Of a stretch of 64,000 bases of DNA, positions 9,023 to 60,918 are shown in pieces (the stretch's first letter is position 1; every line of letters starts with the position of its first letter). Below the pieces are notes generated by a model, which was given only the letters and a program-made list of their open reading frames with translations, was not told the DNA's origin and did not search any database. The stretch comes from Escherichia phage HermannAdler_Bas98: the sequence record PQ850608.1; one strand, written 5' to 3'. The position numbers and the translations under genes are program-made.

Positions 9023-10162
9023 ATGACTCGCATTAGCCAAACACACTCTCGCCTCCCAGCGAGCAAGGTGCGCCCTTTTGATATGCAATCCGTCACCGAC
9101 GCGGCTGTTTCCCAGCTTGCTCGTATCGGTATTGTGTTTGATTCCGCGATTGTGCGTGATCAGATTGAGCACTTAAACCGTGCAGGCGCTTTTCGCGTAG
9201 GTGACGCCGCGTTTACTGCGCCGCAGACTACTCCGTCAATCCCGACCCCGTTGCAGTTCCTGCAGCAGTGGTTGCCTGGCTTCGTCAAAATCATGACCGC
9301 TGCTCGTAAAATCGACGAGCTGGTTGGTATTGATACTGTTGGTCAGTGGGAAGATGCAGAAATCGTTCAGGGTATCGTTGAACCAGCTGGCACCGCAGTT
9401 GAATATGGTGATTTCACCTCTATTCCTCTGGCAAGCTGGAACGTAAACTTTGAACGTCGTTCTATCGTTCGTGGCGAAATGGGCATGGCAGTTGGTATGC
9501 TGGAAGAAGGCCGCGCGTCTGCGATGCGTCTGAACTCCGCAGAAACCAAGCGCCAGCAGGCTGCTGTATCTCTGGAAATCATGCGTAACGCAATCGGCTT
9601 CTATGGTTGGTACAACGGGAATAACCGCACGTTCGGATTCCTGAATGATCCAAACCTGCCAGCGGCGATGACTTCCAACACCACTTCCGGCTGGGCTACT
9701 GCGACCTTCCAACAGGTTACTGCAGACATCCGTTTGATGGTTCGTCAAATTCGTGTGAACTCTCAGGACCAGATTGATCCAGAGAAGGTTGACATGACTC
9801 TTGCGCTGCCGACTAACTCTATCGATTGGCTGTCCAACACCACTGACTTCGGTATTTCTGTACGTGACTGGATCACCCAGACTTATCCGAAGATGAAGAT
9901 CAAATCTGCACCGGAACTCAACGGCGCACTTGGCAGTGACCCGACTTTCTTGAACGTGGCATACCTGTACGCTGATCACATTGATTCCTCAATCGATGGC
10001 TCAAGCGATGATGGTTCCGTATTCAGTCAGCTGGTTCAGACCAAGTTCATGACTCTGGGCGTTGAAAAGCGTGCTAAGAGCTATGTCGAAGACTACGCAA
10101 ACGCAACAGCAGGCGTTCTGCTCAAGCGTCCTTTCGCAGTCGTCCGTATGACTGGTATTTAA
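9023..10162 (+). CDS. Major capsid protein (putative)
   Basis: 379 aa ORF in canonical position after scaffold; followed by hairpin at 10188-10217. Confidence 0.6.
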
Positions 10163-27880: not shown

Positions 27881-28525
27881 ATGATTAATGCAAACGTAAT
27901 ATCTAAAGGGACCGGATGCAGCATGGATGTTGCTGAAAAATGGGTCGACCCCTTCAAGCAGGCTTGTGAGCACTACGGAATCAAAAGCAAGAATGCCATC
28001 GCTGCGCTGCTTGCAAACGTAGGAGTGGAAACAGGCAGTCTGAAGACCTTTGTGGAAAACCTGAATTATTCCGCTCAAGGTCTTGCTAATACGTGGCCTA
28101 GCCGTTACAGCGCCAGCGGTCGTTTCGGTGGCGCACCAAACTCCTTGGCATTGTCGATTGCCCGTAAACCAATGGAAATCGCCAATAATACATATGCAAA
28201 CCGAATGGGAAATGGTTCGGTAGCATCTGGCGACGGTTGGAAGTACCGTGGCCGTGGTGCCATTCAGCTGACTGGAAAGGATAACTATGCAGAGTATTCA
28301 AAGCAATCAGGGTATGACGCATTGAATAACCCTGACATTTTGACTGAGCCGAAATACATTGCTGACAGCGCGGCATGGTTCTTCAAGAACAGCGGTTGCA
28401 TTCCACTTGCCGATGCGGGCGCATTTGATTCGACCGTGAAGCGGATTAACGGGGCCGCGCCAAATACGGCTAACCATGGGGATTTGCGACGGAAGCGTTA
28501 CAAGGAAGCACTAGCAGTTATGTAA
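27881..28525 (+). CDS. Endolysin, GH19 chitinase-like lysozyme
   Basis: Signature YRGRGAIQLTGKDNY typical of glycoside hydrolase family 19 muramidases; 214 aa. Confidence 0.8.
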   Translation: MINANVISKGTGCSMDVAEKWVDPFKQACEHYGIKSKNAIAALLANVGVETGSLKTFVENLNYSAQGLANTWPSRYSASGRFGGAPNSLALSIARKPMEIANNTYANRMGNGSVASGDGWKYRGRGAIQLTGKDNYAEYSKQSGYDALNNPDILTEPKYIADSAAWFFKNSGCIPLADAGAFDSTVKRINGAAPNTANHGDLRRKRYKEALAVM

Positions 28526-29495: not shown

Positions 29496-30470
29496 TTAAA
29501 AATACTCCATATCGGTAATATCACGGAAGCATTTATACAAAGCAGAGCGCGGCACGTCGACGATGCCAAAGTTAAAGAATTTATACGTTAGGTATTTATC
29601 GCGATAGTTCTCGCGATTCTCCCAAAGCATTTTACGCTCTGCCATAGGCATTGAACCAGCGGAGACGCGGAAAGGAATCATTTCACCTTTCTCATCCACA
29701 TATTTTGGATTGACGACTACGAATGAGCCAAGGTATCCTTTCGCAACTAAACCTTCAGCCTCTTTTGAACGCTTGGTGCGACCCAATTCGTCAATGAATG
29801 CTTCGTTGTTGTTCTCCATCATCTCAACGAAGTCTATGATCAACCCTTCTTCATCGGTCCACGGCTTGTCCTTCCACACATCACGTGACTTCGGCGTCGC
29901 GCGGCCATGCTTATATTTGCCCGTCCAAGACTTGCCATACAAGCCTTCATAGCCAAGCTGGTCTGCTTCGATTTGCATTGCCGCGTACTGGTCCATATTT
30001 TCGATGTTGCGATATTCGAGAGCGCGAAGGAATGGACGTCGGCCATGGTCAATGAGATGTTGATTGACCTCAGCAACACGTCGATTGTACTTCTCATAAC
30101 GGGCCGAGAATGGCAAATCAGGTTCGCTAAAGTCATCAAACACCCACCATGTAAAGTTAGTGATTGCATCAGTGTTCATGCATGCAGTATAGGCCTGTTG
30201 CATGACGTTCTTGTCATTTGGATTGCCGTCGATTAGCTCTCCATCAAGTCCGTGAATTAATTCACCCAAGAAGAGGAACTCTTTTTTGATTTGAATGTTG
30301 CGCAGCGCCATGCCGGACGTGCCCATTGGCAAGTTGTCATACGCCATTGCGCGTATGCCATCGACCTTGAATGACAATCCGCAAGGCAGCGGCACGTCTT
30401 CGCCGCGCTCGATTATTTGCTTACGCTGGCAACCCTTCATTGGTTTTAATGCTTTGATTTCTCCTGCCAT
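29496..30470 (-). CDS. ATP-dependent DNA ligase
   Basis: Adenylation motif I KVDGIR (FKVDGIRAMAY); start at ATG behind RBS AAGGAG; about 324 aa. Confidence 0.8.
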   Translation of the reverse strand: MAGEIKALKPMKGCQRKQIIERGEDVPLPCGLSFKVDGIRAMAYDNLPMGTSGMALRNIQIKKEFLFLGELIHGLDGELIDGNPNDKNVMQQAYTACMNTDAITNFTWWVFDDFSEPDLPFSARYEKYNRRVAEVNQHLIDHGRRPFLRALEYRNIENMDQYAAMQIEADQLGYEGLYGKSWTGKYKHGRATPKSRDVWKDKPWTDEEGLIIDFVEMMENNNEAFIDELGRTKRSKEAEGLVAKGYLGSFVVVNPKYVDEKGEMIPFRVSAGSMPMAERKMLWENRENYRDKYLTYKFFNFGIVDVPRSALYKCFRDITDMEYF

Positions 30471-31063
30471 CACTCAAACTCCTTATTCATCACTTGTTCC
30501 AGCGCATAGGCGTAATCCTGATCAGTCGATTTGATAAACGTGCCGTTGTACATGACGCCTTTGCGGTCTTTGATGTCTTCGTAGGCAGCTTGCGCACAGT
30601 CGGATAAGCGAAGGCCATAATCATGAGCTACGCCGGAAAGGTAATCGACTGCGGCCATGATGGTGACGTCAATATCCATGGTTTGATTCTTGGCAATAGC
30701 ATCACCAAGTCGTCCAAGGGTCTTTGCCAGGCGAAGGATAAATGAATGAGGGTGAGCGCCTTTATCAGCGCAACCGCCGCCATTAATGTTTTCGATTTCA
30801 GCACCGTTTTGCGCTGCCAGGATGGTCAACACAACAAGGCAATCGCCAATGTCGTCCTTAATTGCAGCTTGCAAGTCACAGATGGCCTGCTCTGTATATC
30901 CAATTTCAGGGTCGAAGAACACAAGGTCATGGAGTTGATCAACGTGGTCGGTTAACTCCCCAAACTCGCTGATAAGCTTCGGGTATTGGTCCTTAAGGTC
31001 GCAACCTTGGATGATGTTACGGTCAGAAGCCCACTGGCGAATGTTTGCATAAATCTGTTTCAT
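30470..31063 (-). CDS. MazG-like nucleotide pyrophosphohydrolase (putative)
   Basis: All-alpha character with EFGEL and DIGDCLVVL motifs resembling MazG EExGE / GDxL signatures; ATGA overlap with ligase. Confidence 0.5.
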   Translation of the reverse strand: MKQIYANIRQWASDRNIIQGCDLKDQYPKLISEFGELTDHVDQLHDLVFFDPEIGYTEQAICDLQAAIKDDIGDCLVVLTILAAQNGAEIENINGGGCADKGAHPHSFILRLAKTLGRLGDAIAKNQTMDIDVTIMAAVDYLSGVAHDYGLRLSDCAQAAYEDIKDRKGVMYNGTFIKSTDQDYAYALEQVMNKEFE

Positions 31064-31578
31064 TTATTTTCCTTTGATGCATTGAATTGATCGATTTTTA
31101 TTTTAGCCTGATTATAAGTATCAATCAAGCCATTAACTTTCTCTTTTAATCGATTTGTTTCTGCGGCGAACTGAACAAGAAATCTGACATCTTCTTCTGA
31201 TAGTCCACAGTTTCCTTCTGGGATAGAGAGGCGTCCAGTGGTCGCAGAGTCGGGCACACTCCTGAGTAACTCACGGGAGCAGCTGAGTTGCTCGCGCAGC
31301 TTGATATTCCCAGACTTGTAACGAGCAATAGTGTCATCAGCAACCAGTTGCGCTTCCTGGCGACCTTTCTCATATGCCGATGCCGATTCAACCTGTAAAG
31401 ATGCAATTTGCTCTTCGAGTGCATTTATCTTGTCCTTACGCTCATTAAGCGATGTCAGATATTGATTATCCTTGGCCAGTGATGCGTTGGTTTGCTGCAG
31501 GTCTTCAACGTATGATCCAGCGGCAAACGCGCCAACAAGGGCCAGAATCTTCAGGAGCGGTACAATTCTTTCTATCAT
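31060..31578 (-). CDS. Rz: Rz-like i-spanin
   Basis: N-terminal transmembrane segment (IVPLLKILALVGAFAAGSYV), coiled-coil periplasmic region, 172 aa, with embedded out-of-frame lipoprotein ORF. Confidence 0.6.
   Translation of the reverse strand: MIERIVPLLKILALVGAFAAGSYVEDLQQTNASLAKDNQYLTSLNERKDKINALEEQIASLQVESASAYEKGRQEAQLVADDTIARYKSGNIKLREQLSCSRELLRSVPDSATTGRLSIPEGNCGLSEEDVRFLVQFAAETNRLKEKVNGLIDTYNQAKIKIDQFNASKENK
31146..31337 (-). CDS. Rz1: Rz1-like o-spanin lipoprotein, embedded in Rz in another frame
   Basis: From Met30 of track ORF: MTLLLVTSLGISSCAS has signal plus lipobox (ISSC), Pro-rich; entirely inside 31060-31578. Confidence 0.55.
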   Translation of the reverse strand: MTLLLVTSLGISSCASNSAAPVSYSGVCPTLRPLDASLSQKETVDYQKKMSDFLFSSPQKQID

Positions 31579-31635: not shown

Positions 31636-32496
31636 TTAAAACTCTTCTGCGTCGGTCGGAGTTTCATTGACAGGACCAGCGGCACCGCTTGCTTCTTCCT
31701 GCTTGCTGCGGTCGATGTTGACGTTGCCGCCCACTACGTCATTGTGGAATGCCTTGGCGACTTCGTACAGACCTTTGTCCTGCACCAGACCTTCCAACTC
31801 AAACTTCAGAACGGACCAGGTGTTGCCGTCTTTGGACTGAGATGCAGTGCCCATGCGAACAATGTTCATAAAGGTCGGCGGCGTTTTCAGGCCCTGCGGA
31901 GTCTGAACTTTCTTCTGCTGCAGAGCGGTCATCAGCATGCGAGACGGCTTGATCATGGAAGAAGTCAGGGACAGCATTGCGCTACCAAATTCACCCGTTT
32001 CTTCGTTCAACAGAATCACGAAGTGGTTACGTGTATCTGCATAGTAAGGAGATTTCTTCTCGTGCACTTTGCCGTTTTCGTCCGGCACAAATACCTTACC
32101 GTTGATCTCAACAGCGCGGCCTGCCGCGACTTCTGCATCAACGTGCTCTTTGGTGAATTCACCTTTAAAGCCTTTATCGTCGGACTCGCGACCGCCCCAA
32201 AGGATGAAGGTGCGTTTGAATGCGCAAGGGATGATCTGCACGCCTTTCTTGCCGTCATACAACTCACCAGTGACGGTGTTGTACAGCATGCCAGCTTTTG
32301 CGCCAGGAACGTGTTTAGGATCATCTTCGTCGACCATAGGTGACATCTTCTGCAGGACGACGATAAAAGGAATGGCATACGCATCGGCATCGGCACCTTC
32401 AAAACCAGCGCCAAAATCGGTCATGTCGACAAAATCAGCCATAGCGGACATCTGGGTGTTTTTCACTGCAACTTCGGTGGTTTCTTTCTTAGACAT
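31636..32496 (-). CDS. Single-stranded DNA-binding / annealing protein (putative)
   Basis: 286 aa with acidic C-terminal tail ending ...TDAEEF, as in SSB-type proteins; located in replication block. Confidence 0.45.
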   Translation of the reverse strand: MSKKETTEVAVKNTQMSAMADFVDMTDFGAGFEGADADAYAIPFIVVLQKMSPMVDEDDPKHVPGAKAGMLYNTVTGELYDGKKGVQIIPCAFKRTFILWGGRESDDKGFKGEFTKEHVDAEVAAGRAVEINGKVFVPDENGKVHEKKSPYYADTRNHFVILLNEETGEFGSAMLSLTSSMIKPSRMLMTALQQKKVQTPQGLKTPPTFMNIVRMGTASQSKDGNTWSVLKFELEGLVQDKGLYEVAKAFHNDVVGGNVNIDRSKQEEASGAAGPVNETPTDAEEF

Positions 32497-32555
32497 TTGA
32501 TATTTTCCTATAGTATCAAGTTTCGTGGCAACCTGATTTCAAGATAAAGGTTAAA

Positions 32556-33113
32556 TTACTTTTTGCTTTTAGGCAAGGTTATTTTAGCTTCTTTGTATTC
32601 AAAAACGCTAATATCTTCACTAACTGGATTGCCTGCTTCCAGCTGTTCTTTTACAAACGACTTCAGTGTAGCAGAATGAACGCCTTGTTTCAATGTGGCT
32701 TCAACACCATCTTCACGCAGCGCGGCAACAATCTCTTGCGCCTGTTCGATTTCTTCGCGACCGAACTCAGCCGTGACGCTGGACTTGATCAGGCCGCCGT
32801 AACCGTTGTTGACAAGCCAATCGAAAACTTTTAATTCGTTTTCTTTCTTGATCGAAGCATTCACCTTGGACTCGACCTTGATTTTGGTCTTGTCCTCAAG
32901 CTTGATCTCAGACACGCCAAGCTCCTCCATAACGCCAGGAAGCAGAACAGTTTTGATTTCACTGATGCGCTGCTTTTGCATATCAGCTTCATCTTCAAGC
33001 TCTGTCAAAGCCTCTTGGCGTTCTGCCAGTTCAGATACTAAGCGCGCAAGGCGCTCTTGAATGCTCTCAGGAGCGACCTGCGGCAAATCATCTTCCCAAT
33101 TAATATTGCTCAT
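32556..33113 (-). CDS. Hypothetical protein with N-terminal coiled coil
   Basis: 185 aa; between SSB-like and helicase genes; no confident motif. Confidence 0.45.
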   Translation of the reverse strand: MSNINWEDDLPQVAPESIQERLARLVSELAERQEALTELEDEADMQKQRISEIKTVLLPGVMEELGVSEIKLEDKTKIKVESKVNASIKKENELKVFDWLVNNGYGGLIKSSVTAEFGREEIEQAQEIVAALREDGVEATLKQGVHSATLKSFVKEQLEAGNPVSEDISVFEYKEAKITLPKSKK

Positions 33114-38827: not shown

Positions 38828-38853
38828 ACAAAAAGGCCGCCCATTAGGACGGC
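38828..38853 (-). terminator. Hairpin terminator downstream of 38871-39422 (minus strand)
   Basis: GGCCGCCCATTAGGACGGCC hairpin followed on minus strand by T-run. Confidence 0.5.
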
Positions 38854-38870
38854 CACAGATTCACGATTCG

Positions 38871-39422
38871 TTATACAGTGTACGGAGTACCTTCTTGATT
38901 CAAGCGCACGATAAACTTCAAATCAACGCCGATGATTTCACGCGTATCAAAGATCACATAGTTGTAACGACGTTGGCCAGCGATGTTTGGGTTGGTGTGA
39001 GAATCAGTTACGACTTCCTGTGCAACCTGAATGCCTTCTTCGCTAAAGAACTTACGCCATTCAGCAAGTTCAGCAGCAGTCACGTGCATACCAAGGTGGC
39101 TGACCTGATTATCGTGCGCATCGAGCATGTCGATGTTTTCATTAATCCAGTTGCAACCTTTTGTGTAGTCAAGGATTTCAAGCTCAAGAGGCTTACCAGC
39201 GCCGCCATCAGTACCGTTGCCAGCCTGATAGTTGAAGCGCAAGTCAGCTTCATTGGTGCAATCGCCGCGCTGACCTTTAAAGTCATCAGCTTCAAATACG
39301 CGACCAGTAGCAACAACGTGATCATGGAACCACTCTGTCAGGCCGATTTTAGCCAGGAAGTCCTGAGCGCGTTGAGCATCTGGAATGGACAGGGCGATTT
39401 GTTCAATTTTAAAATGTGGCAT
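38871..39422 (-). CDS. Hypothetical protein, VOC/glyoxalase-like fold suspected
   Basis: 183 aa; N-terminal MPHFKIEQIALSIPD...FLAKIGL pattern reminiscent of VOC enzymes; weak. Confidence 0.4.
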   Translation of the reverse strand: MPHFKIEQIALSIPDAQRAQDFLAKIGLTEWFHDHVVATGRVFEADDFKGQRGDCTNEADLRFNYQAGNGTDGGAGKPLELEILDYTKGCNWINENIDMLDAHDNQVSHLGMHVTAAELAEWRKFFSEEGIQVAQEVVTDSHTNPNIAGQRRYNYVIFDTREIIGVDLKFIVRLNQEGTPYTV

Positions 39423-39442
39423 TTTGTTTCCTTAATTAAATA

Positions 39443-39658
39443 TTATTGATTAATTACTGTGTTGTCTTCGTCCTGTTTCTTTTCAGGAGCGGGTGTGACA
39501 ACTTCAAATTTAGGTTTGGGTAATTCACCTTTAGCGCCTGGGACTTCAACGACAATCTTTTTGTCAGGCTCAACAGGATTTGGAACTTCAAATTTGATTG
39601 TGTATCCTAATACAACAAGAAGCACTAAACCGATTACCGCTACCCAGGCTTTGTTCAT
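39443..39658 (-). CDS. Small membrane-anchored Pro/Lys/Glu-rich protein
   Basis: N-terminal TM (AWVAVIGLVLLVVLGY) followed by Pro-rich extended segment; 71 aa. Confidence 0.45.
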   Translation of the reverse strand: MNKAWVAVIGLVLLVVLGYTIKFEVPNPVEPDKKIVVEVPGAKGELPKPKFEVVTPAPEKKQDEDNTVINQ

Positions 39659-39660
39659 GG

Positions 39661-39828
39661 TTATTCGCCCTTATCTTTGCCTTCTATGGAATAAGTCTCA
39701 ATGGAACCGACGCGCTCGTGGTTAACCTTTGCGTTTTCGATTCTTATTACTTCAAATCCAACGCCTTCTTGATCAATCTTCACTTCTGCCACGTCGCCAA
39801 TCACTTCTACAACAACTTTGATAGTCAT
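39661..39828 (-). CDS. Small hypothetical protein (about 55 aa, below track length cutoff)
   Basis: Read by eye as MTIKVVVEVIGDVAEVKIDQEGVGFEV...; fills gap between flanking genes; coordinates approximate within 1-2 nt. Confidence 0.3.
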   Translation of the reverse strand: MTIKVVVEVIGDVAEVKIDQEGVGFEVIRIENAKVNHERVGSIETYSIEGKDKGE

Positions 39829-39831
39829 GAT

Positions 39832-40515
39832 TTATTTCCCAAATGGAATATCAGTACCAGACATAAAGCGCCATGCGCCCGTAATTAAGATATGGCGAAT
39901 GAAGTCAGCAATTACTTGCGGCTCAGTCTCCAATCCATTCATCAATGCCTTTTTCTGGTATTCAGCGGCGTATTCAGGAGTCCATCCGCGAGTCGCGCAA
40001 ACAGCATCTTCAATCTGTTTAGACATACCAGTGCCGCGCAACTTGTTAGGACTAATAGAGAATACCGTGATGCCGTATTTAGGCGTAAGCTCGTGAGCCA
40101 TCTGCTTGCTAATCATAAGCGCAGCAGCCTTGGATGCATTATAACACAAGCTGGACGTCATAGGAATATGCGCAGCGTTAGAAACGATATTGATCACAAA
40201 ACCTTTGTTGTCGATAAGACTTTTCAGCGCGGCCTGAGTCGTGTTGACGAAAGAGAAGGCGTTGGTGTGCATAACGCGATTGAACTCTTCGTAGTTAACA
40301 TCTTCGAACCAGTTGTTGGAGTTGACGCCAGCGCAGTTGATCAAGCCTTCTACATCATATGGGCTTAAAATTTCTTTCATCTGTTTAGCGTCGCGGACGT
40401 CATATCCGTATGCTGAATCGATTCCAAGCACGTTATGACCGTAAGCGCCAAGGGTGTCAAAAATAGATTTACCAAGACCGGAATTGGAACCTGTTACAAC
40501 AATTACTTTTTTCAT
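39832..40515 (-). CDS. Short-chain dehydrogenase/reductase (SDR) family oxidoreductase
   Basis: Rossmann motif TGSNSGLG near N-terminus and catalytic YNASK (YxxxK); 227 aa. Confidence 0.8.
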   Translation of the reverse strand: MKKVIVVTGSNSGLGKSIFDTLGAYGHNVLGIDSAYGYDVRDAKQMKEILSPYDVEGLINCAGVNSNNWFEDVNYEEFNRVMHTNAFSFVNTTQAALKSLIDNKGFVINIVSNAAHIPMTSSLCYNASKAAALMISKQMAHELTPKYGITVFSISPNKLRGTGMSKQIEDAVCATRGWTPEYAAEYQKKALMNGLETEPQVIADFIRHILITGAWRFMSGTDIPFGK

Positions 40516-40536
40516 TTATTTATCCTTTTTGGACTT

Positions 40537-40570
40537 CGTTTCGATGAGGTAAATATAACTCATCGAAACG
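40537..40570 (-). promoter_or_regulatory. Conserved inverted-repeat element upstream of RBS (copy 2)
   Basis: Perfect 12-bp inverted repeat CGTTTCGATGAG...CTCATCGAAACG with 10-nt loop; just 5' of SDR gene RBS on the minus strand. Confidence 0.5.
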
Positions 40571-40580
40571 CACAAGTAAA

Positions 40581-41456
40581 CTATTTATTGAAATTAATAT
40601 TATGGGTGTTAACAAGACGTTCACACATGGCGCTATAAACACCATCGTCGTGTATTGAGTCTTCGTGCTTCAGGCCGCTGATTGCGAAGCGTGTAAGCTT
40701 GACAATCTTAAGCTCGAACAGATGCCACATGTGGTAGTCTTCCGGTGTCTTCAAAGTTACGCCATTAGGGAACAACACCTGCATAACCTGACCTACCATC
40801 ACAGCGTTATCGCCATAAACGGCATTGCGCTCACGGAAGGTCGCGGCCATCGCATCAAGAATATCAGCAGCGGTTGCTGGGGCTTGTTGTTCAACTTCAA
40901 CAAGTTTAGTCTCTTCTTTCCCTGTTGCACTTGGATCAACTGCTAATTGTTGCACCACTTCACCTGCCTTGCAAAGATTAAATGTAAAGGCGATTTTATT
41001 TTGCGCCATGGAATTATAGTGCAAAGCTTCTTCTTGCATCCGCGCGAGTACGTCTTGTCGGTCGTCGAATACATTGATGATTCGATAATCGCCGTGCCGC
41101 AAAGCGTGCGATAGCCATGCAGATTTCATAATAGTTGATGGACGTTTGTCGCCATAGTCTCTCATCTTGATTGTAAATTCATCAAAAGGGAAAACATTGT
41201 CCAGACGTTCAAAAGTCACTTGTCTGTATTTTTCTGGCCTTGCAGTCCAATATTCAACCGCCTCACCGCGAAGAGATGCCGACTCTACTGCTGATGCAAT
41301 GTGAGGATAGAACTGATCATAACCAATACCGCTGTGATAGTCATCATAGTCTGACAACGGACCTGCCACCTTGATGCGGTCTAAGCGCCAACGGTCATCA
41401 AACAGCGTTCCGTCAAGGTCGAATACGTTTAAGATTTCGCTGTTTTTAATGCTCAT
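40581..41456 (-). CDS. HAD-superfamily phosphatase with C-terminal extension
   Basis: N-terminal motif I FDLDGTLFD (DxDGT); 291 aa, C-terminal half unassigned. Confidence 0.6.
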   Translation of the reverse strand: MSIKNSEILNVFDLDGTLFDDRWRLDRIKVAGPLSDYDDYHSGIGYDQFYPHIASAVESASLRGEAVEYWTARPEKYRQVTFERLDNVFPFDEFTIKMRDYGDKRPSTIMKSAWLSHALRHGDYRIINVFDDRQDVLARMQEEALHYNSMAQNKIAFTFNLCKAGEVVQQLAVDPSATGKEETKLVEVEQQAPATAADILDAMAATFRERNAVYGDNAVMVGQVMQVLFPNGVTLKTPEDYHMWHLFELKIVKLTRFAISGLKHEDSIHDDGVYSAMCERLVNTHNINFNK

Positions 41457-42262
41457 CCTTTTGATACTCCATCTTTAGCAACTGGATTGTTGGTGATTGG
41501 CATTGCACTCCAAAACTGGATGCGCAACTCTTCTTGCTGTGCCGTGGTATCCATCCAATCACGATACCAAGGGCAATGGGCTTTGCCATGACGAGGAAAC
41601 GCGCATTTACCCATACCGATGCATTGCGGCTGTAATAGTGGATTTGCCCACGGGTGCACCTTGAGGACTTCCGCAACCATTGCGCGGAATACTTCTTGAT
41701 ACTCGCCTTGGGTGCGCGTGCACAAGCGGTTTGACGCCATCTGCTGCAGCGTGCGCAAGTTGAACTTTGCCATGATATGCGTTTGCATATTAGAAGGCAA
41801 CACGGCACGTGCATCTTGAATCTCTGCGCCAGCCGCGCGAAGCTCTTGGTATAGAGCGTCAATCGTGGCCATCGCATCATCCCACTTCTCTGCCAATGAG
41901 TGATTTCTTATGTGCACATCATCAAATGCATTTTCATCATTGCAGTCAAAAGGGTGCTCGAATGCCTTCGGACGAATCGCATCAAATGCAGACGACTCCT
42001 GAGCGCGGCTGGTGCGTTCTTGATATGCGCCTGTGCGTGTGCGTACCATCTGATGGGTCATGTTCTTTGATACAGCTGTGATATCAAAGATATAGTCCAC
42101 AAAGTCAAAAGGAGACCTGATTGTATCAAGCATGTAGCGCCAGTGCTCTTGCTTCTCTGATTCTGTCATCTCAGAGACTGGCTTACCAGTCATGCGCGTG
42201 TTCTTTGTTTCCAGCAAAAGGTCAAGTGCATCTTGGGTGTATCGAATTAATTCAACTTTCAT
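41453..42262 (-). CDS. Divergent ThyX-like (flavin-dependent thymidylate synthase family) protein
   Basis: Aligns by eye to the ThyX core: QMVRTRTGAYQERTSR where ThyX has the RHR-x7-S motif, and RAVLPSNMQTH...R.L..M...R against the second ThyX block; Cys-rich C-terminal tail CIGMGKCAFPRHGKAHCPWY. Confidence 0.65.
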   Translation of the reverse strand: MKVELIRYTQDALDLLLETKNTRMTGKPVSEMTESEKQEHWRYMLDTIRSPFDFVDYIFDITAVSKNMTHQMVRTRTGAYQERTSRAQESSAFDAIRPKAFEHPFDCNDENAFDDVHIRNHSLAEKWDDAMATIDALYQELRAAGAEIQDARAVLPSNMQTHIMAKFNLRTLQQMASNRLCTRTQGEYQEVFRAMVAEVLKVHPWANPLLQPQCIGMGKCAFPRHGKAHCPWYRDWMDTTAQQEELRIQFWSAMPITNNPVAKDGVSKG

Positions 42263-42275
42263 TTTAATTATCCTA

Positions 42276-42722
42276 TTAACGGTAATTCACTAGTTGCTGA
42301 TCACCAGAGAAGGTGCAATGATAAACGAATTGTGCGTTATAAAGCAACTGAAAACTTTTCTTTGGTTCATTATTAGAACTCATTGATGTAAAGATTTCTG
42401 CACCAGAACGGTTTTCACCAATCAGGTTAATAAAGTCGCCAGTTGAACGAGGCTGAACGAAAGTGAAACGCTGCATCCACGGAGTCCGGTTGGCACCTTT
42501 TCCGGTGAATCCCTGAATCTGAATATTCAGACCTTCTTGCTCGTTCACACCGATGTAAGTGGTAATTGTTGCGCCAGTCGTCGCTGCAGTCTTGCCGTCC
42601 ATCGCTTCGCAATCGTAAACAGCGATTGAATCGGAAGTACGGACAGCGGCTTCAGTCGCTTCCATATACATGGTTCCGAGAATAGCAGTTGCGGCAAGCG
42701 CGATTCCAGTGATGCGTTTCAT
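42276..42722 (-). CDS. Secreted protein with signal peptide
   Basis: N-terminus MKRITGIALAATAILGTMYMEA; 148 aa. Confidence 0.5.
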   Translation of the reverse strand: MKRITGIALAATAILGTMYMEATEAAVRTSDSIAVYDCEAMDGKTAATTGATITTYIGVNEQEGLNIQIQGFTGKGANRTPWMQRFTFVQPRSTGDFINLIGENRSGAEIFTSMSSNNEPKKSFQLLYNAQFVYHCTFSGDQQLVNYR

Positions 42723-42787
42723 TTTCGTTTCCTCTATGAGTTCTGCTTCAATGATTAAAGTATACGCCCATTGAAGCAGAAAGCAAA

Positions 42788-43783
42788 TTATTTATTAGCA
42801 ATATAAGCAAATTTTTGATAGTTATTTGCTTTGATGAGTTTTTCAACTTCAGCAAGGTCATGAGCGACGTCATCAAGCAAAATGTTTCGCCAAGTAGCGA
42901 ATCGACCGACACTAAATACGTTCAAATCCATGGTCAGTTGCAGGAGTAGAGCGTGTCGCAAGTCTTTCGGAATGTCGACAATCTTGCCATACTTCTGGTC
43001 GACCTTTTCAACTTCTTCGAGAGCGATGTCACTCCATGATAGGCCAAAGGCTGTCAATACTTCGTCAACTTCTGCACGCAACTTAATGTCACGGTAACGA
43101 GTAATGCCGCCAGCGGCTTCAACTGCGGCTTCACTTACGCTAACCAAAGGAATTGTTTCGATGATCAGCGTGTCACCAGTGATTGATGCGCGGTAAGTTC
43201 TGACGGAGTAGTCAGGGAAGTAAATTGTCTGATACAACTCACACTTACGTTTAATCTTAAAGCGGTAAACACGAATGTTTGCTTTATCAAATGAAAAATC
43301 AAGCTTTTGATCAATCCCAGCCAGCTTCATCATAACTGGCAGCGGCGACGTGTTGATGATTGGCGTCTCGCTATAGCCGCAAAGAGTATCAACAGGAGTA
43401 TTAAAGAATATGCGGTCGCCCAGTTTGTCGACAAGCTGATCATAAAAGTCATCAGGCGCAATATAACGCGTTGCAGTTTTAAGCTTCATGATTGAACGGC
43501 TGCCAAACTGATTGGTGACCTTCATGGAATACATATTGGCAAGGTTGATTGGACAATGGTCGTGGTAGTAGTTGCCGCGAAAATACACAGCCTTGTCAAC
43601 TGTCACGGCCTTAAAAGGGATTCCGGTAATACGGCTTACTTCTTCGCCGCGAAAGCGTAGCAGTGCCTTGTGCTGTGGCGCTCGCTCCCCTGCTTCGTAC
43701 ACAATAGAGTTCGGGAAGTGACACGCGGTGATAAGTCCTGCCAAACCGCCGCCGATAATCATTACAGGTTGTTTCATGTTCAT
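42788..43783 (-). CDS. FAD/NAD(P)-binding oxidoreductase
   Basis: Dinucleotide-binding GxGxxG at N-terminus (MIIGGGLAGL) followed by acidic residue pattern; 331 aa. Confidence 0.6.
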   Translation of the reverse strand: MNMKQPVMIIGGGLAGLITACHFPNSIVYEAGERAPQHKALLRFRGEEVSRITGIPFKAVTVDKAVYFRGNYYHDHCPINLANMYSMKVTNQFGSRSIMKLKTATRYIAPDDFYDQLVDKLGDRIFFNTPVDTLCGYSETPIINTSPLPVMMKLAGIDQKLDFSFDKANIRVYRFKIKRKCELYQTIYFPDYSVRTYRASITGDTLIIETIPLVSVSEAAVEAAGGITRYRDIKLRAEVDEVLTAFGLSWSDIALEEVEKVDQKYGKIVDIPKDLRHALLLQLTMDLNVFSVGRFATWRNILLDDVAHDLAEVEKLIKANNYQKFAYIANK

Positions 43784-43863: not shown

Positions 43864-43890
43864 AAAAAGACCCACAACAAGTGTGGGTCA
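43864..43890 (-). terminator. Rho-independent terminator (minus strand)
   Basis: GACCCACAACAAGTGTGGGTC hairpin, T-run on minus strand (AAAAAA on plus). Confidence 0.6.
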
Positions 43891-43917: not shown

Positions 43918-44763
43918 TTATTCCGCTTGATCACCGTCTTCGGCATCGTCGTTGGATTCAACATCGACAAACTCGATGTGGCCCATCTCTTCCAGCTTGC
44001 TCAGGTAGGAGCGAACGGAAGCGCCAAACAGCTGATCTTTAACTTTCTCGCCCAGCTCATCGATAGACTGCGCCACGCCAACTTCGCCTTCTTTGATCGC
44101 CGCCAGAACGCGCCCACGGGTGGAGTGCTCCTGCGGCTGGCTCAGGCCGTTGCCAGTGTAGATGAAGTGAGTAGCTTTTGCACGGCGCTGACCGTTTGCC
44201 TTTTTGGCAGCCTTGCGCTCTGCGATGGCTTTGCGACGTTCTTCAGCTTCTTTCTTACGCTGTTCTTTTTGCTGTTCTGCAGCTTCTTTCGCCGCGATCT
44301 TAGCAGCTTCACGCTCTGCCTTGCGTTTCGCTTTCGCTTCTTCTTTAGCCTTCTCTTTTTCGGCCTTTGCTGCAGCACGGGCTTGATCACGCTCTGCTTT
44401 CTTAGCAGCAGCTTGTTCAGCTTTCAGGCGCTTGGCTTCTTCTTTGGCCTTTGCCTTTTCGATTTCTTTTGCTGCTTTAGCGGCTTCACGCTCTGCTTTC
44501 TTAGCAGCAGCCTTTTCTGCACGCTCTTTAGCTTTCTTAGCTGCTTCTTCAGCACGCTTCTGAGCCTTCTCATCAGCAGCCTGTTTGCGCTTCAGCGCGG
44601 CTTCTTCACGCTTGGCTTGTTTTTCCTGCTCACGCTTCTGGCGTTTTTCTTCGGCTTCTTTCTTTTTAGCCAGGCGTTTTTCTTCAGCCACGCGACGACG
44701 TTCTGCTGCGGCTGCTTGTTTTTCTTCTTTAGATAATACTTTGATTGCTTCGGCCATATTCAC
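43918..44763 (-). CDS. Lys/Glu/Ala-rich repeat protein with globular C-terminal domain
   Basis: About 200 aa of KEA-rich low-complexity helix-like repeats (AEEKRLAKKKEAEEKRQK...), then an ordered domain with acidic tail; underlying DNA has tandem repeats. Confidence 0.55.
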   Translation of the reverse strand: MNMAEAIKVLSKEEKQAAAAERRRVAEEKRLAKKKEAEEKRQKREQEKQAKREEAALKRKQAADEKAQKRAEEAAKKAKERAEKAAAKKAEREAAKAAKEIEKAKAKEEAKRLKAEQAAAKKAERDQARAAAKAEKEKAKEEAKAKRKAEREAAKIAAKEAAEQQKEQRKKEAEERRKAIAERKAAKKANGQRRAKATHFIYTGNGLSQPQEHSTRGRVLAAIKEGEVGVAQSIDELGEKVKDQLFGASVRSYLSKLEEMGHIEFVDVESNDDAEDGDQAE

Positions 44764-59364: not shown

Positions 59365-60575
59365 AATTTGCACTATGGGATTTTGCACTATGAGTCAAGA
59401 TTATGTAGCGATGCCTGAAGACTTTGAAGACCCGCGATTCGCAGAGCACAATCAGGCTTTATTCGATGAGTTCATTGACCTTGTTATTCAGGGTCATGAC
59501 ATGCGCGCAGCTTTTGCACTAGTATTTGGAATGGAAGTTGCAACGGATAACTACACTGGCCAGCGAATCCTTTGCACGCAACGCAATCCATACTACAAGA
59601 TGCGCTTCAAAAAGCGTATGGAAGAGATGCCACTCAAGGATTTGTGGAGCGTAAAAGGTGCAATTCACAATTTGGTCAAGCTTGTGCGTGATCCAGAAGT
59701 CGCGGCGTCAGCCAAGCTTAATGCTATTCGTGAACTGAATATCATCTACGGCATCACGATGATTGATGAAAACGGCAATAGTAAAATGGGCCGTTCTATG
59801 GACGATTTCTACAAGGATTTTGGAGAGGCTGCCAAAGAAGGAGAGCAATTCTCCCGCCACTAGCCAATTTGCACTATAAAACGGCCCTAGAACACATGTT
59901 CTCCACTTCTAGGGCCATCGGTAATACGACGGGGAAGGTCGCACCCATAAACGCGTTAGAAAGTGTATTATTATAAGTCATCTTTTAGTCGCTTTACGTA
60001 ACAATTTACGACCTTCAACCGTCCAATCGAACGACTCCACCAGCAGATTCGCACTATAACCTAAGACGATGCGCCCTTTCTCGTTATCGACCCGCCAACA
60101 AGTCTCGAATAGCATTCGATTTGCACTATTAACTATTGCCGCAACGCGCGTAGGGTAAGCGCAATTTGCACTATGGTCGTAAAGGGATAAGGTGCGACCA
60201 CTTCCGATGGACAATGTAGCGATGAGAATAAGCGTATTCATAAGCCACCAATTTGCACTATGAAAAGCGACCCCGAAGGGCCGCCATTCGATTAGATAAT
60301 CTGGAAGGTGTAGGACTTGTTGCCGAACTCGAAGTTCAAGCGTCCAGCTTCTTTAAGCTTCATGCGGAAGCGAATGTGCTTGCTATCCGGTAATCCCAGC
60401 GCGGCGAAGGCTACGCGGACCGATTTGAACTCGCCTACACCCTCGACCATAACGCCGTTACGGGTGAGACGCTTTTGCGCCACTTCCTTATTATCCCAAC
60501 TTTTTGCAATACCTTCGCTATTCGAACGGCGATGGGAAGGAGTTCCATTTTGCACTACGCAATTTGCACTATCGT
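59365..60575 (+). repeat. Dispersed cluster of 11-bp motif ATTTGCACTAT (at least 8 copies, same orientation)
   Basis: Copies read near 59365, 59381, 59867, 60046 (ATTCGCACTAT variant), 60120, 60166, 60251, 60547 and 60559; several lie inside predicted minus-strand ORFs. Confidence 0.6.
59390..59863 (+). CDS. Hypothetical protein
   Basis: 157 aa from Met6 of track ORF; start codon overlaps an ATTTGCACTAT motif copy. Confidence 0.45.
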   Translation: MSQDYVAMPEDFEDPRFAEHNQALFDEFIDLVIQGHDMRAAFALVFGMEVATDNYTGQRILCTQRNPYYKMRFKKRMEEMPLKDLWSVKGAIHNLVKLVRDPEVAASAKLNAIRELNIIYGITMIDENGNSKMGRSMDDFYKDFGEAAKEGEQFSRH

Positions 60576-60918
60576 TTAAGCCGCTCTTAACGAAGGCTTC
60601 ATACTCTTCATCGCTCATCGCGTCGAGTTCTTCCTGGGTCGGCTCAGCCTTTTTAACGACCGCACGCGCCTTATGCGTTTTTACATCACTGGACACTTCC
60701 TCACGCGGCTTCGCGTCGGGAATGGGCGATTCGTTGGACGGCTCATCGAGCGCGTTTAAGGACTCGATTAACGCGATTACGCGAGTCTCGGCGGTCCGGC
60801 GGTCCGCAAATTTCTTAATCGGCTTCGAACCGGAATTTGCATTATAAAATGCAACGAGGTCGGCGGTCTTAGTTGCGATAACGTCGCCGCTAGTAGAAAA
60901 GCGATTTAAGCTAACCAT
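60292..60918 (-). CDS. Hypothetical protein
   Basis: 208-aa ORF in CpG-rich terminal segment; contains two motif copies on the opposite strand. Confidence 0.4.
   Translation of the reverse strand: MVSLNRFSTSGDVIATKTADLVAFYNANSGSKPIKKFADRRTAETRVIALIESLNALDEPSNESPIPDAKPREEVSSDVKTHKARAVVKKAEPTQEELDAMSDEEYEAFVKSGLNDSANCVVQNGTPSHRRSNSEGIAKSWDNKEVAQKRLTRNGVMVEGVGEFKSVRVAFAALGLPDSKHIRFRMKLKEAGRLNFEFGNKSYTFQII

Follow-up and report, generated by a model that had tools for sequence, protein, structure and literature searches.

In phages M6, ViI, PaMx11 and ΦW-14, thymidine is hypermodified through 5-hydroxymethyldeoxyuridine (5-hmdU) by a ThyA-type dUMP hydroxymethylase, a P-loop 5-hmdU DNA kinase and aGPT-Pplase transferases (PMC8989533). 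A sugar-type hypermodified thymidine at TG sites was reported in a 2025 preprint for the DNA of Pbunavirus, the PB1-like phages of Pseudomonas. The virion DNA of two of these phages, F8 and 14-1, yielded new nucleosides derived from thymidine, with masses of 362 and 390 Da. The authors describe them as adducts of a tetrose sugar-alcohol and of a cyclised aldopentose, which take the place of about a quarter of T (PMC12191111). The same preprint reported that F8 DNA is cleaved by EcoRI, HindIII, XbaI, DraI and BsaI, named Pbunavirus as a family that would escape prediction from homology, and proposed no biosynthetic gene for the modification (PMC12191111); no later paper assigning such genes was found in our literature search. 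Here we analyze an operon of Escherichia phage HermannAdler_Bas98 (PQ850608.1) whose core, a flavoprotein, an atypical ThyX and a HAD phosphatase, is shared with Pbunavirus. The analyzed stretch of 64,000 nucleotides is called the window below.

The window belongs to Wifcevirus, an E. coli myophage group that is distant kin of the Pseudomonas PB1-like phages. Wifceviruses are myoviruses of 66-72 kb that infect E. coli and Shigella and are distantly akin to Pbunavirus (PMC11990801). They resist EcoKI, EcoCFT_I, EcoRI, EcoRV and EcoCFT_II without a known protection mechanism (PMC11990801). The row of phage ManiWeber_Bas99 in the S2 Table of the BASEL study gives site counts of 5, 3, 38, 8, 92 and 89, in a column order that we deduced (PMC11990801), and the window has 17 EcoRI sites, with 17.9 expected. 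An earlier note on this DNA had flagged the enzyme block beside the replication genes as a candidate pathway to a non-canonical pyrimidine. The conserved core, the modification of Pbunavirus, the restriction resistance and a process of elimination lend this idea circumstantial support, although it cannot be proven by sequence. We propose that the operon is a thymidine-modification module of the PB1-like supergroup, which would make a non-canonical thymidine. The link is circumstantial and the responsibility of these genes is something that we infer, so that we put the probability of this reading at roughly 45%.

Conservation and enzymes of the core

The comparison of gene neighbourhoods that the earlier note had recommended revealed a conserved co-occurrence. 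Among 80 IMG/VR loci holding the flavoprotein, ThyX followed it in all 55 with at least 4.2 kb downstream, and HAD/DUF6378 was present in 41 of the 42 with at least 7 kb downstream. In the latter class of loci, the SDR and VOC genes occurred together in 32 and only one of them in a single locus. The near-universal order was flavoprotein→ThyX→HAD/DUF6378→(SDR→VOC)→DnaQ→Pol, so that the conserved core is flavoprotein→ThyX→HAD/DUF6378, while SDR and VOC were gained or lost as a pair. In PB1, F8 and 14-1 the order was flavoprotein, small open reading frames (ORFs), ThyX, small ORF, HAD, DnaQ and Pol; the core was therefore present in Pbunavirus, with gp65 (flavoprotein), gp59 (ThyX) and gp57 (HAD) as its members in F8, while SDR and VOC were absent. 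The triad was also found in the Rhizobium jumbo phages RHph_TM30 and RHph_TM40 (within 7 kb in the latter), beside dUTPase and RNR genes, and metagenomic contig L066 had the order DUF932-flavoprotein-ThyX-terminase without Pol or DnaQ. Because it recurs in the Rhizobium phages and in this contig, the coupling of flavoprotein and ThyX is independent of the replication backbone.

The flavoprotein is a member of phrog_4828, which PHROGs labels as "unknown function", and has a GxGxxG motif. The family comprised 1911 homologues in 1135 clusters at 50% identity, nearly all of 290-340 aa, and was found in 361 records of a phage collection. These included all sampled Pbunaviruses, Wifcevirus, phages of Serratia, Pantoea, Xanthomonas and Vibrio, a 40-kb Ralstonia phage and 200-kb Rhizobium jumbo phages, and PB1-like and Rhizobium phages dominated among the tblastn matches listed. 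The orthologues in F8, 14-1 and PB1 were 39-41% identical to the flavoprotein of the window. No Pfam family, GLF and NAD_binding_8 included, matched it at E≤0.1, nor did any NCBIfam family, and neither phmmer nor a 33-sequence profile found a match in the PDB. In a profile search of 1.84 billion proteins, all of the best 150 matches were family members of nearly full length, and none bridged to an annotated family. The protein had been called an FAD oxidoreductase in the earlier note. An FAD-binding fold of the UDP-galactopyranose mutase (UGM)/PPOX/amine-oxidase type is indeed firm, with UGMs as the top structural neighbours and PPOX and amine oxidases equally near, but the label does not narrow to a specific function.

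The annotation of this protein as a UGM in some records, phage Mansfield among them, was rejected as a family assignment, since the GLF model and the PDB sequence and profile searches were all blank. When the flavoprotein was aligned by hhalign with an approximate sequence of E. coli Glf, the alignment was confined to the GxGxxG (FAD motif) region. A genuine UGM is present in a phage DNA-glycosylation cluster (PMC13326640) and, like PaMx11 gp47 (PMC8989533), is a precedent for flavoenzymes in the hypermodification of phage DNA, which speaks for the proposed module. The Mansfield annotation nonetheless speaks for another explanation of the operon, namely that it remodels host glycans (nucleotide-sugar pools or O-antigen) for superinfection exclusion or to keep progeny from adsorbing to debris, the small secreted or membrane proteins being helpers. 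Enzymes of these types typically serve sugar pathways, and two ORFs have signal- or membrane-like N-termini. The O16 O-antigen contains galactofuranose. Wifceviruses of the BASEL collection depend on this O-antigen (PMC11990801). However, the flavoprotein fails Pfam GLF and is no nearer to UGM than to PPOX and amine oxidases, and the secreted ORFs are not conserved. Moreover, the core is kept in phages of Pseudomonas, Xanthomonas, Rhizobium, Ralstonia and other hosts, whose surface glycans are unrelated, and its constant partners are ThyX and replication genes rather than genes for lysis or tails. Glycan remodelling is therefore highly improbable.

Ten Arg/Lys residues, namely R43, R45, K64, K88, R96, R106, R198, K267, R276 and R294, are invariant across the flavoprotein family, which suggests an anionic substrate. 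They also accord with an explanation in which the flavoprotein alone would act on DNA as a thymine-methyl dehydrogenase at TG sites, its 5-methylene product being trapped by a polyol or sugar hydroxyl, while the role of ThyX and HAD would be confined to dTTP supply and the alcohol donor would come from SDR and VOC. PPOX-type relatives dehydrogenate carbons beside heteroaromatic rings. The mass arithmetic given below fits both published nucleosides, and a post-replicative, context-specific change with canonical T elsewhere would be explained without a kinase or glycosyltransferase. Flavoenzymes acting on DNA-borne bases are known from phage DNA hypermodification, for example PaMx11 gp47 (PMC8989533). 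On the other hand, flavin-dependent oxidation of the thymine methyl group has no precedent, and the enzymes known to oxidise this group are Fe/2OG dioxygenases (10.1101/2025.08.14.668559). No DNA-binding domain was detected in the flavoprotein, and the tight tie to this ThyX subfamily is left unexplained, which makes a flavoprotein acting by itself improbable.

The second core gene encodes a divergent ThyX with an altered active-site motif, just as the earlier note had described it. It scored 103.4 bits against Pfam Thy1 (PF02511; cut-off 24.8, E=1.7e-29) but stayed below the equivalog cut-off of NCBIfam TIGR02170 (78.1 versus 87.9 bits). The ThyX motif RHR(X)7S is replaced by RTR(X)7T (RTRTGAYQERT at residue 74). 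Orthologues in F8, 14-1 and PB1 were 50% identical to it. We surveyed 69 distinct members of this family in T. maritima numbering. The residues that bind or activate dUMP (Q75, R78, R80, R90, R147 and R174) were invariant in 69/69. The substitutions H53→I, H79→T/S/N, Y91→V/A and H178→R were likewise found in 69/69, and S88 was replaced by T in 52, kept as S in 13 and replaced by A in 4 of the 69. In ThyX enzymes, H53 stacks on the folate. No ThyX-type hydroxymethylase was found in our literature search.

The ThyX also has a Cys-rich C-terminal extension of 65 residues (window 41453-41650: QPQCIGMGKCAFPRHGKAHCPWY), which may be a metal site. This extension is common to the proteins of Wifcevirus, Pantoea phage Kyle, Serratia, Xanthomonas and Pbunavirus, and an unrelated helix takes its place in those of Rhizobium, Ralstonia and several metagenomic loci.

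The residues of ThyX bear directly on the possibility that the operon is an ordinary module for dTMP supply. In such a module the ThyX would be normal and the flavoprotein its helper, for example by providing one-carbon units in the manner of an amine oxidase or by reducing flavin; HAD would be a nucleotidase or 3'-phosphatase, SDR and VOC would be auxiliary metabolic genes, and the hypermodification of the relatives would be encoded elsewhere, by uncharacterised ORFs, or performed by host enzymes. The ThyX passes the Pfam threshold and keeps all arginines that bind dUMP and FAD, the module lies in the replication region with dUTPase and RNR as neighbours in the Rhizobium phage, and the HAD domain is a phosphatase of the PNKP kind. 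Nevertheless, three conserved histidines of ThyX are replaced family-wide and its score is under the equivalog cut-off. A flavoprotein family of more than 1000 clusters is strictly tied to this ThyX subfamily without an assigned role, and we know of no ThyX that requires a protein partner. A co-inherited pair of an SDR and an epimerase-like protein has no place in dTMP synthesis, and the Pbunavirus modification and Wifcevirus resistance would be left without a candidate enzyme. On balance, we consider mere dTMP supply somewhat unlikely.

The third core gene encodes the phosphatase with a DxDGT motif that the earlier note had recognized. The motif is DLDGT at residue 13, and the protein matched HAD_PNKP with 33.4 bits (cut-off 27.6) and phrog_4889 with E=8e-120. 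Only the phosphatase domain matched, and the P-loop polynucleotide kinase domain was not found in this protein. Because the kinase domain is absent, the annotation "polynucleotide kinase" in many records is unsupported. What the earlier note had not mentioned is a C-terminal DUF6378-like domain of about 100 aa, which turned out to be conserved more widely than any other part of the gene. Many relatives encode it as a separate protein of 95-120 aa, and in Rhizobium phage RHph_TM40 its fusion partner is a different HAD domain. A free-standing homologue matched DUF6378 with E=4.5e-5, under the cut-off. The invariant residues of the domain are Y20, K59, R62, D72, S73, D76 and Y80, and a profile search of the PDB gave a weak POU-specific-like match (E=0.0035). 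The idea that this domain is MazG-like was dropped, as hhalign gave no match to the MazG-like protein of the window.

The SDR was predicted earlier to have intact TGxxxGxG and YxxxK motifs, and these are TGSNSGLG at residue 8 and YNASK at residue 125 in a protein that matched adh_short with E=2.6e-31 (109 bits). Its matches were confined to generic FabG-like proteins, and these do not point to any particular substrate. The SDR gene was present in relatives from Wifcevirus, Kyle, Serratia, Erwinia and Xanthomonas. A second, independent association of an SDR with ThyX was seen in unrelated actinophages of Gordonia (such as Gibbin and Lambo) and Mycobacterium (such as PBI1 and Gumball), where a FabG-like SDR about 30% identical to that of the window and a "ThyX-like" gene are approximately 5-6 kb apart. 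The protein described earlier as VOC-like has the fold, with paired βαβββ modules, but its score against Pfam Glyoxalase_4 (17.2 bits) is below the cut-off of 27, and PF13669 was carried by 2 of the 120 VOC homologues listed.

The earlier note had also counted secreted or membrane ORFs and a MazG-like gene (30470-31063) among the possible parts of the pathway. These did not hold up: the MazG-like gene and the 148-aa ORF had homologues in Wifcevirus loci only, the 71-aa and 55-aa ORFs occurred in some Wifceviruses only, and this restriction to Wifcevirus rules them out as members. None of the 148-, 71- and 55-aa ORFs matched a Pfam or PHROG family. In PB1, the slot between flavoprotein and ThyX is filled by five small ORFs unrelated to the 148-aa ORF. 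The slot between ThyX and HAD is variable too: in Kyle (9723-10013) it holds a 96-aa gene annotated as nucleoside triphosphate pyrophosphohydrolase and in PB1 the 63-aa ORF58.

Thymidine modification, restriction and the proposed pathway

By mass arithmetic, the nucleosides of Pbunavirus correspond to T - 2H + tetritol (362) and T - 2H + pentose (390). The schemes dU + 1-deoxypentitol-1-yl (362) and dU + hexosyl (390) are equivalent in mass. We hypothesize that the core would supply or install the sugar-type substituent found at C5 of Pbunavirus thymine and would account for the restriction resistance of Wifcevirus. In the first step, flavin chemistry would make an electrophilic one-carbon or sugar-carbon centre at pyrimidine C5, either by a ThyX-type transfer of a flavin-N5 iminium onto dUMP or by dehydrogenation of the thymine methyl group by the flavoprotein, which would give a 5-methylene intermediate to be trapped by an alcohol. 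A tetrose- or pentose-derived unit would then be joined to the activated C5 centre. The HAD phosphatase would strip the phosphate from a sugar-phosphate or nucleotide intermediate, and the SDR, as a ketoreductase, together with the epimerase-like VOC would tailor the sugar where they are present. Such tailoring would explain the different adducts in different lineages. Every chemical step of this scheme is one that we infer.

HAD, SDR and an epimerase-like VOC are typical sugar-tailoring activities and thus match a sugar chemistry. The combined mechanism is chemically conceivable by analogy, as the flavin-N5-sugar iminium of UGM parallels the flavin-N5-methylene iminium of ThyX. The more specific proposal, that the flavoprotein and the His-less ThyX constitute a novel flavin route to C5-sugar or C5-polyol thymidine, independent of the 5-hmdU kinase/transferase paradigm, is doubtful and put forward tentatively. 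Under it, either UGM-type chemistry would be merged with ThyX transfer or the thymine methyl group would be dehydrogenated directly, and the SDR/VOC pair would be a plug-in that diversifies the sugar.

The genome was then considered for other sources of the modification. The scan covered 20 more non-structural ORFs, all with Pfam and 10 with PHROGs as well. These ORFs held only replication proteins and uncharacterised ones; no family of TET/JBP Fe/2OG dioxygenases, glycosyltransferases, methyltransferases or kinases appeared among them. Likewise, no ThyA-type dUMP hydroxymethylase, 5-hmdU DNA kinase or aGPT-Pplase transferase was detected in the block and the scanned ORFs; some small ORFs lay outside the scan, and the libraries may be without models for some such enzymes. 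In the curated record of phage ManiWeber_Bas99, no known hypermodification-type enzyme is annotated in the whole genome. Because the scan gave only replication proteins and unknowns, the flagged operon holds essentially all non-replicative enzymes of the genome. Two proteins outside it are further candidates for a DNA-modifying activity. They are encoded at 59375-59863 (plus strand, 162 aa, phrog_4783) and 60292-60918 (minus strand, 208 aa, phrog_4730) and correspond to gp076 and gp077 of F8.

We further examined whether the window bears a footprint of restriction. Strong depletion was defined as an observed count of at most 0.25 of the expected one, over the 64 6-bp palindromes, and compared by Fisher test. 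In the window, 18 of the 64 were absent although each was expected 10-18 times; the avoided ones included AGATCT, TCTAGA, GGATCC, GGTACC, CTCGAG, GAGCTC and GCTAGC. GGTCTC occurred once (25 expected) and GATC 103 times (247 expected), while ACGCGT, GACGTC, GTCGAC, TCGCGA and all words with TG/CA or TT/AA were at or above expectation. The sites of ApaLI, FspI, NdeI and BsgI, which contain TG, of EcoRI, HindIII and DraI, which contain TT, and of MluI, SalI, AatII and NruI, which contain neither, were each present 15-57 times. None of the 16 TG/CA palindromes was strongly depleted, as against 25 of the other 48 (p=8e-5). The corresponding figures were 2/16 and 21/48 in F8 (p=0.03), 2/16 and 23/48 in 14-1 (p=0.02), 7/16 and 27/48 in T7, an unmodified and palindrome-poor coliphage (p=0.4), 2/16 and 8/48 in T5 (p=1), and 0/16 and 11/48 in 50 kb of the E. 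coli chromosome (p=0.05). Within the GC=4 stratum, the ratio of observed to expected was 1.16 for the TG words and 0.40 for the rest of the window's words, versus 0.21 and 0.12 in T7. The escape of TG/CA words from the palindrome purge is the pattern expected of a protective TG/CA modification, and it is suggestive.

Several points weigh against the operon as a thymidine-modification module. Every dUMP-binding arginine of ThyX is kept, and the enzyme may thus be an ordinary thymidylate synthase. A modification of a quarter of T in TG context must be installed or selected on DNA, so that a missing DNA-level enzyme counts: apart from the weak POU-like match, no recognisable DNA-binding or base-flipping domain was found in the block proteins, and neither the block nor the scanned ORFs contained a glycosyltransferase. 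The palindrome footprint had to be downgraded to suggestive because TT/AA words are exempt as well and E. coli points in the same direction. In addition, GAATTC has no TG, so the in vivo resistance of Wifcevirus to EcoRI misfits a modification confined to TG. Much of the synteny could also be vertical inheritance within one phage supergroup.

The comparison of F8 with 14-1 belongs here as well. Their flavoproteins are 97% and their ThyX proteins 94% identical, and the differences in HAD lie mostly in an acidic linker. Since the core is near-identical despite different adducts, the comparison is uninformative for the block, and the same near-identity of flavoprotein and ThyX is what a plain dTMP-supply module would lead one to expect. 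The most divergent gene of F8 and 14-1 in the compared 28-kb halves is ORF070 (F8, L088 15894-17090; 14-1 ORF70, L089 15997-17301), which is 56% identical between neighbours of more than 91% and is absent from the Wifcevirus window. It encodes a protein with a Zn-finger (DnaJ CXXCXGXG-like) and a coiled coil. Because the adducts of F8 and 14-1 differ, ORF070 is a candidate specificity factor.

Operon layout and neighbouring genes

All the ORFs named in the earlier note were recovered on the minus strand, and together they form one operon running 43783→38871 with a strong terminator at each end (Table 1). As these minus-strand terminators flank the block on both sides, it is a discrete transcription unit; both are annotated in phage Mansfield too. 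The 4.9 kb of block DNA is 92-95% identical to 28 Wifcevirus records, including ManiWeber_Bas99, FEC19, WFC/WFH, ECML-117 and Mansfield, and from the terminase onward the window is collinear with the Bas99 genome.

Table 1.— Features of the operon, in transcription order (positions in the window).
Feature	Position	Strand	Remarks
Intrinsic terminator, 5' operon boundary, closing the upstream K-rich gene	43869-43889	-	8-bp stem then TTTTTT
FAD-binding flavoprotein, 331 aa, first gene	42788-43783	-	phrog_4828; orthologue of PB1/F8 ORF65
148-aa ORF, signal-peptide-like N-terminus	42276-42722	-	variable slot between flavoprotein and ThyX
Atypical ThyX, 269 aa	41453-42262	-	Pfam Thy1 E=1.7e-29
HAD/DUF6378-like protein, 291 aa, whole ORF	40581-41456	-	HAD_PNKP; phrog_4889
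HAD phosphatase domain (N-terminal), PNKP-phosphatase type	40890-41456	-	HAD_PNKP 33.4 bits; DLDGT residue 13
DUF6378-like helical domain (C-terminal), ~100 aa	40581-40889	-	homology to stand-alone proteins in relatives
Classical SDR, 227 aa	39832-40515	-	adh_short E=2.6e-31
Small ORF, 55 aa, variable filler	39661-39828	-	without family match
Small ORF, 71 aa, hydrophobic N-terminal segment, variable filler	39443-39658	-	without family match
VOC-fold protein, 183 aa, last gene	38871-39422	-	resembles methylmalonyl-CoA epimerase and glyoxalase I
Intrinsic terminator, 3' operon boundary, directly after the VOC gene and ahead of DnaQ	38835-38854	-	8-bp stem (7 G-C pairs) then TTTTT

Between the block and the RecD-like helicase lies a conserved gene for a protein of 281 aa that is extremely rich in K, E and A and has a globular C-terminal domain (43918-44763, minus strand, phrog_4765). 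Most PB1-like loci with the RecD-like helicase have this gene immediately upstream of the flavoprotein gene. The K-rich protein could bind DNA and so matter for a step at the DNA level. Farther away, the minus-strand region 31636-33113 encodes two proteins that match recently defined Pfam families, Pam3_Gp34 (E=4e-86) and DUF7307/Pam3 gp33-like (E=3e-37); these are kept from Pbunavirus to Wifcevirus and adjoin a UvsW-like helicase. A pair of i-spanin and o-spanin is encoded at 31060-31578 (minus strand), with the o-spanin nested out of frame at 31146-31424. This pair is inside the replication cluster, between the MazG-like and Pam3 gp34-like genes and far from the endolysin (27881-28525). If the operon served dTMP supply after all, the real modification activity could reside in the phrog_4783, phrog_4730, Pam3 gp33/gp34-like or K-rich proteins.

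Comparison with known systems

In Pseudomonas therapy, Pbunaviruses are some of the most frequently used phages, and the search for their modification genes is now narrowed to a five-gene operon with a three-gene core. If the operon is indeed a modification module, it would represent a new enzymology of DNA base modification, with flavoenzymes replacing the kinase/transferase pair, and thymidine hypermodification in phages would also be built from enzyme families other than those of the 5-hmdU pathways. The core would then be a sequence marker predicting hypermodified genomes in more than 1000 uncultured phage lineages, and a source of novel enzymes for the synthesis of modified DNA. It would also explain END-nuclease sensitivity and escape from restriction, which is relevant to the choice of therapy phages. 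Even if the core is not responsible, phrog_4828 is still a very large, strictly ThyX-linked flavoprotein family without known function.

Among known enzymes, canonical ThyX (PF02511/TIGR02170) has the same fold and the same nucleotide-binding residues as the ThyX of the block. The latter differs in the altered RHR(X)7S motif, in the loss of H53, H79 and H178 and in its strict coupling to an extra flavoprotein. The flavoprotein has the fold type common to UGM, PPOX and amine oxidases, UGM being known for its flavin-N5-sugar iminium chemistry, but not the Pfam membership of UGM.

The 5-hmdU pathways likewise start from an enzyme of the thymidylate-synthase family and replace T partially by a bulky group linked to the C5-methyl, which blocks nucleases. 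However, their enzyme is ThyA-type, whereas that of the block is ThyX-type, and they append amino acids or polyamines, whereas the adduct in the relatives of the block is a sugar or polyol. The phages SP-15, YerA41 and Carin-5 have sugar-decorated 5-dihydroxypentyl-uracil derivatives and thereby a polyhydroxy-alkyl or sugar group on uracil C5, like the Pbunavirus adduct (PMC12686479). In contrast, these phages are large, use ThyA-type enzymes and glycosyltransferase blocks, and replace most of their T. RHph_TM30, one of the Rhizobium phages with the core, appears in a list of phages with a polymerase similar to those of the T-hypermodified YerA41 and SP-15 (PMC12686479).

Pbunavirus belongs to the same supergroup, has orthologues of the core in the same order beside DnaQ and Pol, and shows restriction resistance that is likewise unexplained. 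The modification is proven in Pbunavirus alone and, as no genes are assigned to it there, is more a phenotype than a defined system. Unlike Pbunavirus, Wifcevirus possesses SDR and VOC. Because EcoRI cuts F8 DNA and yet Wifcevirus resists EcoRI in vivo, the adduct or its sequence context may differ in Wifcevirus.

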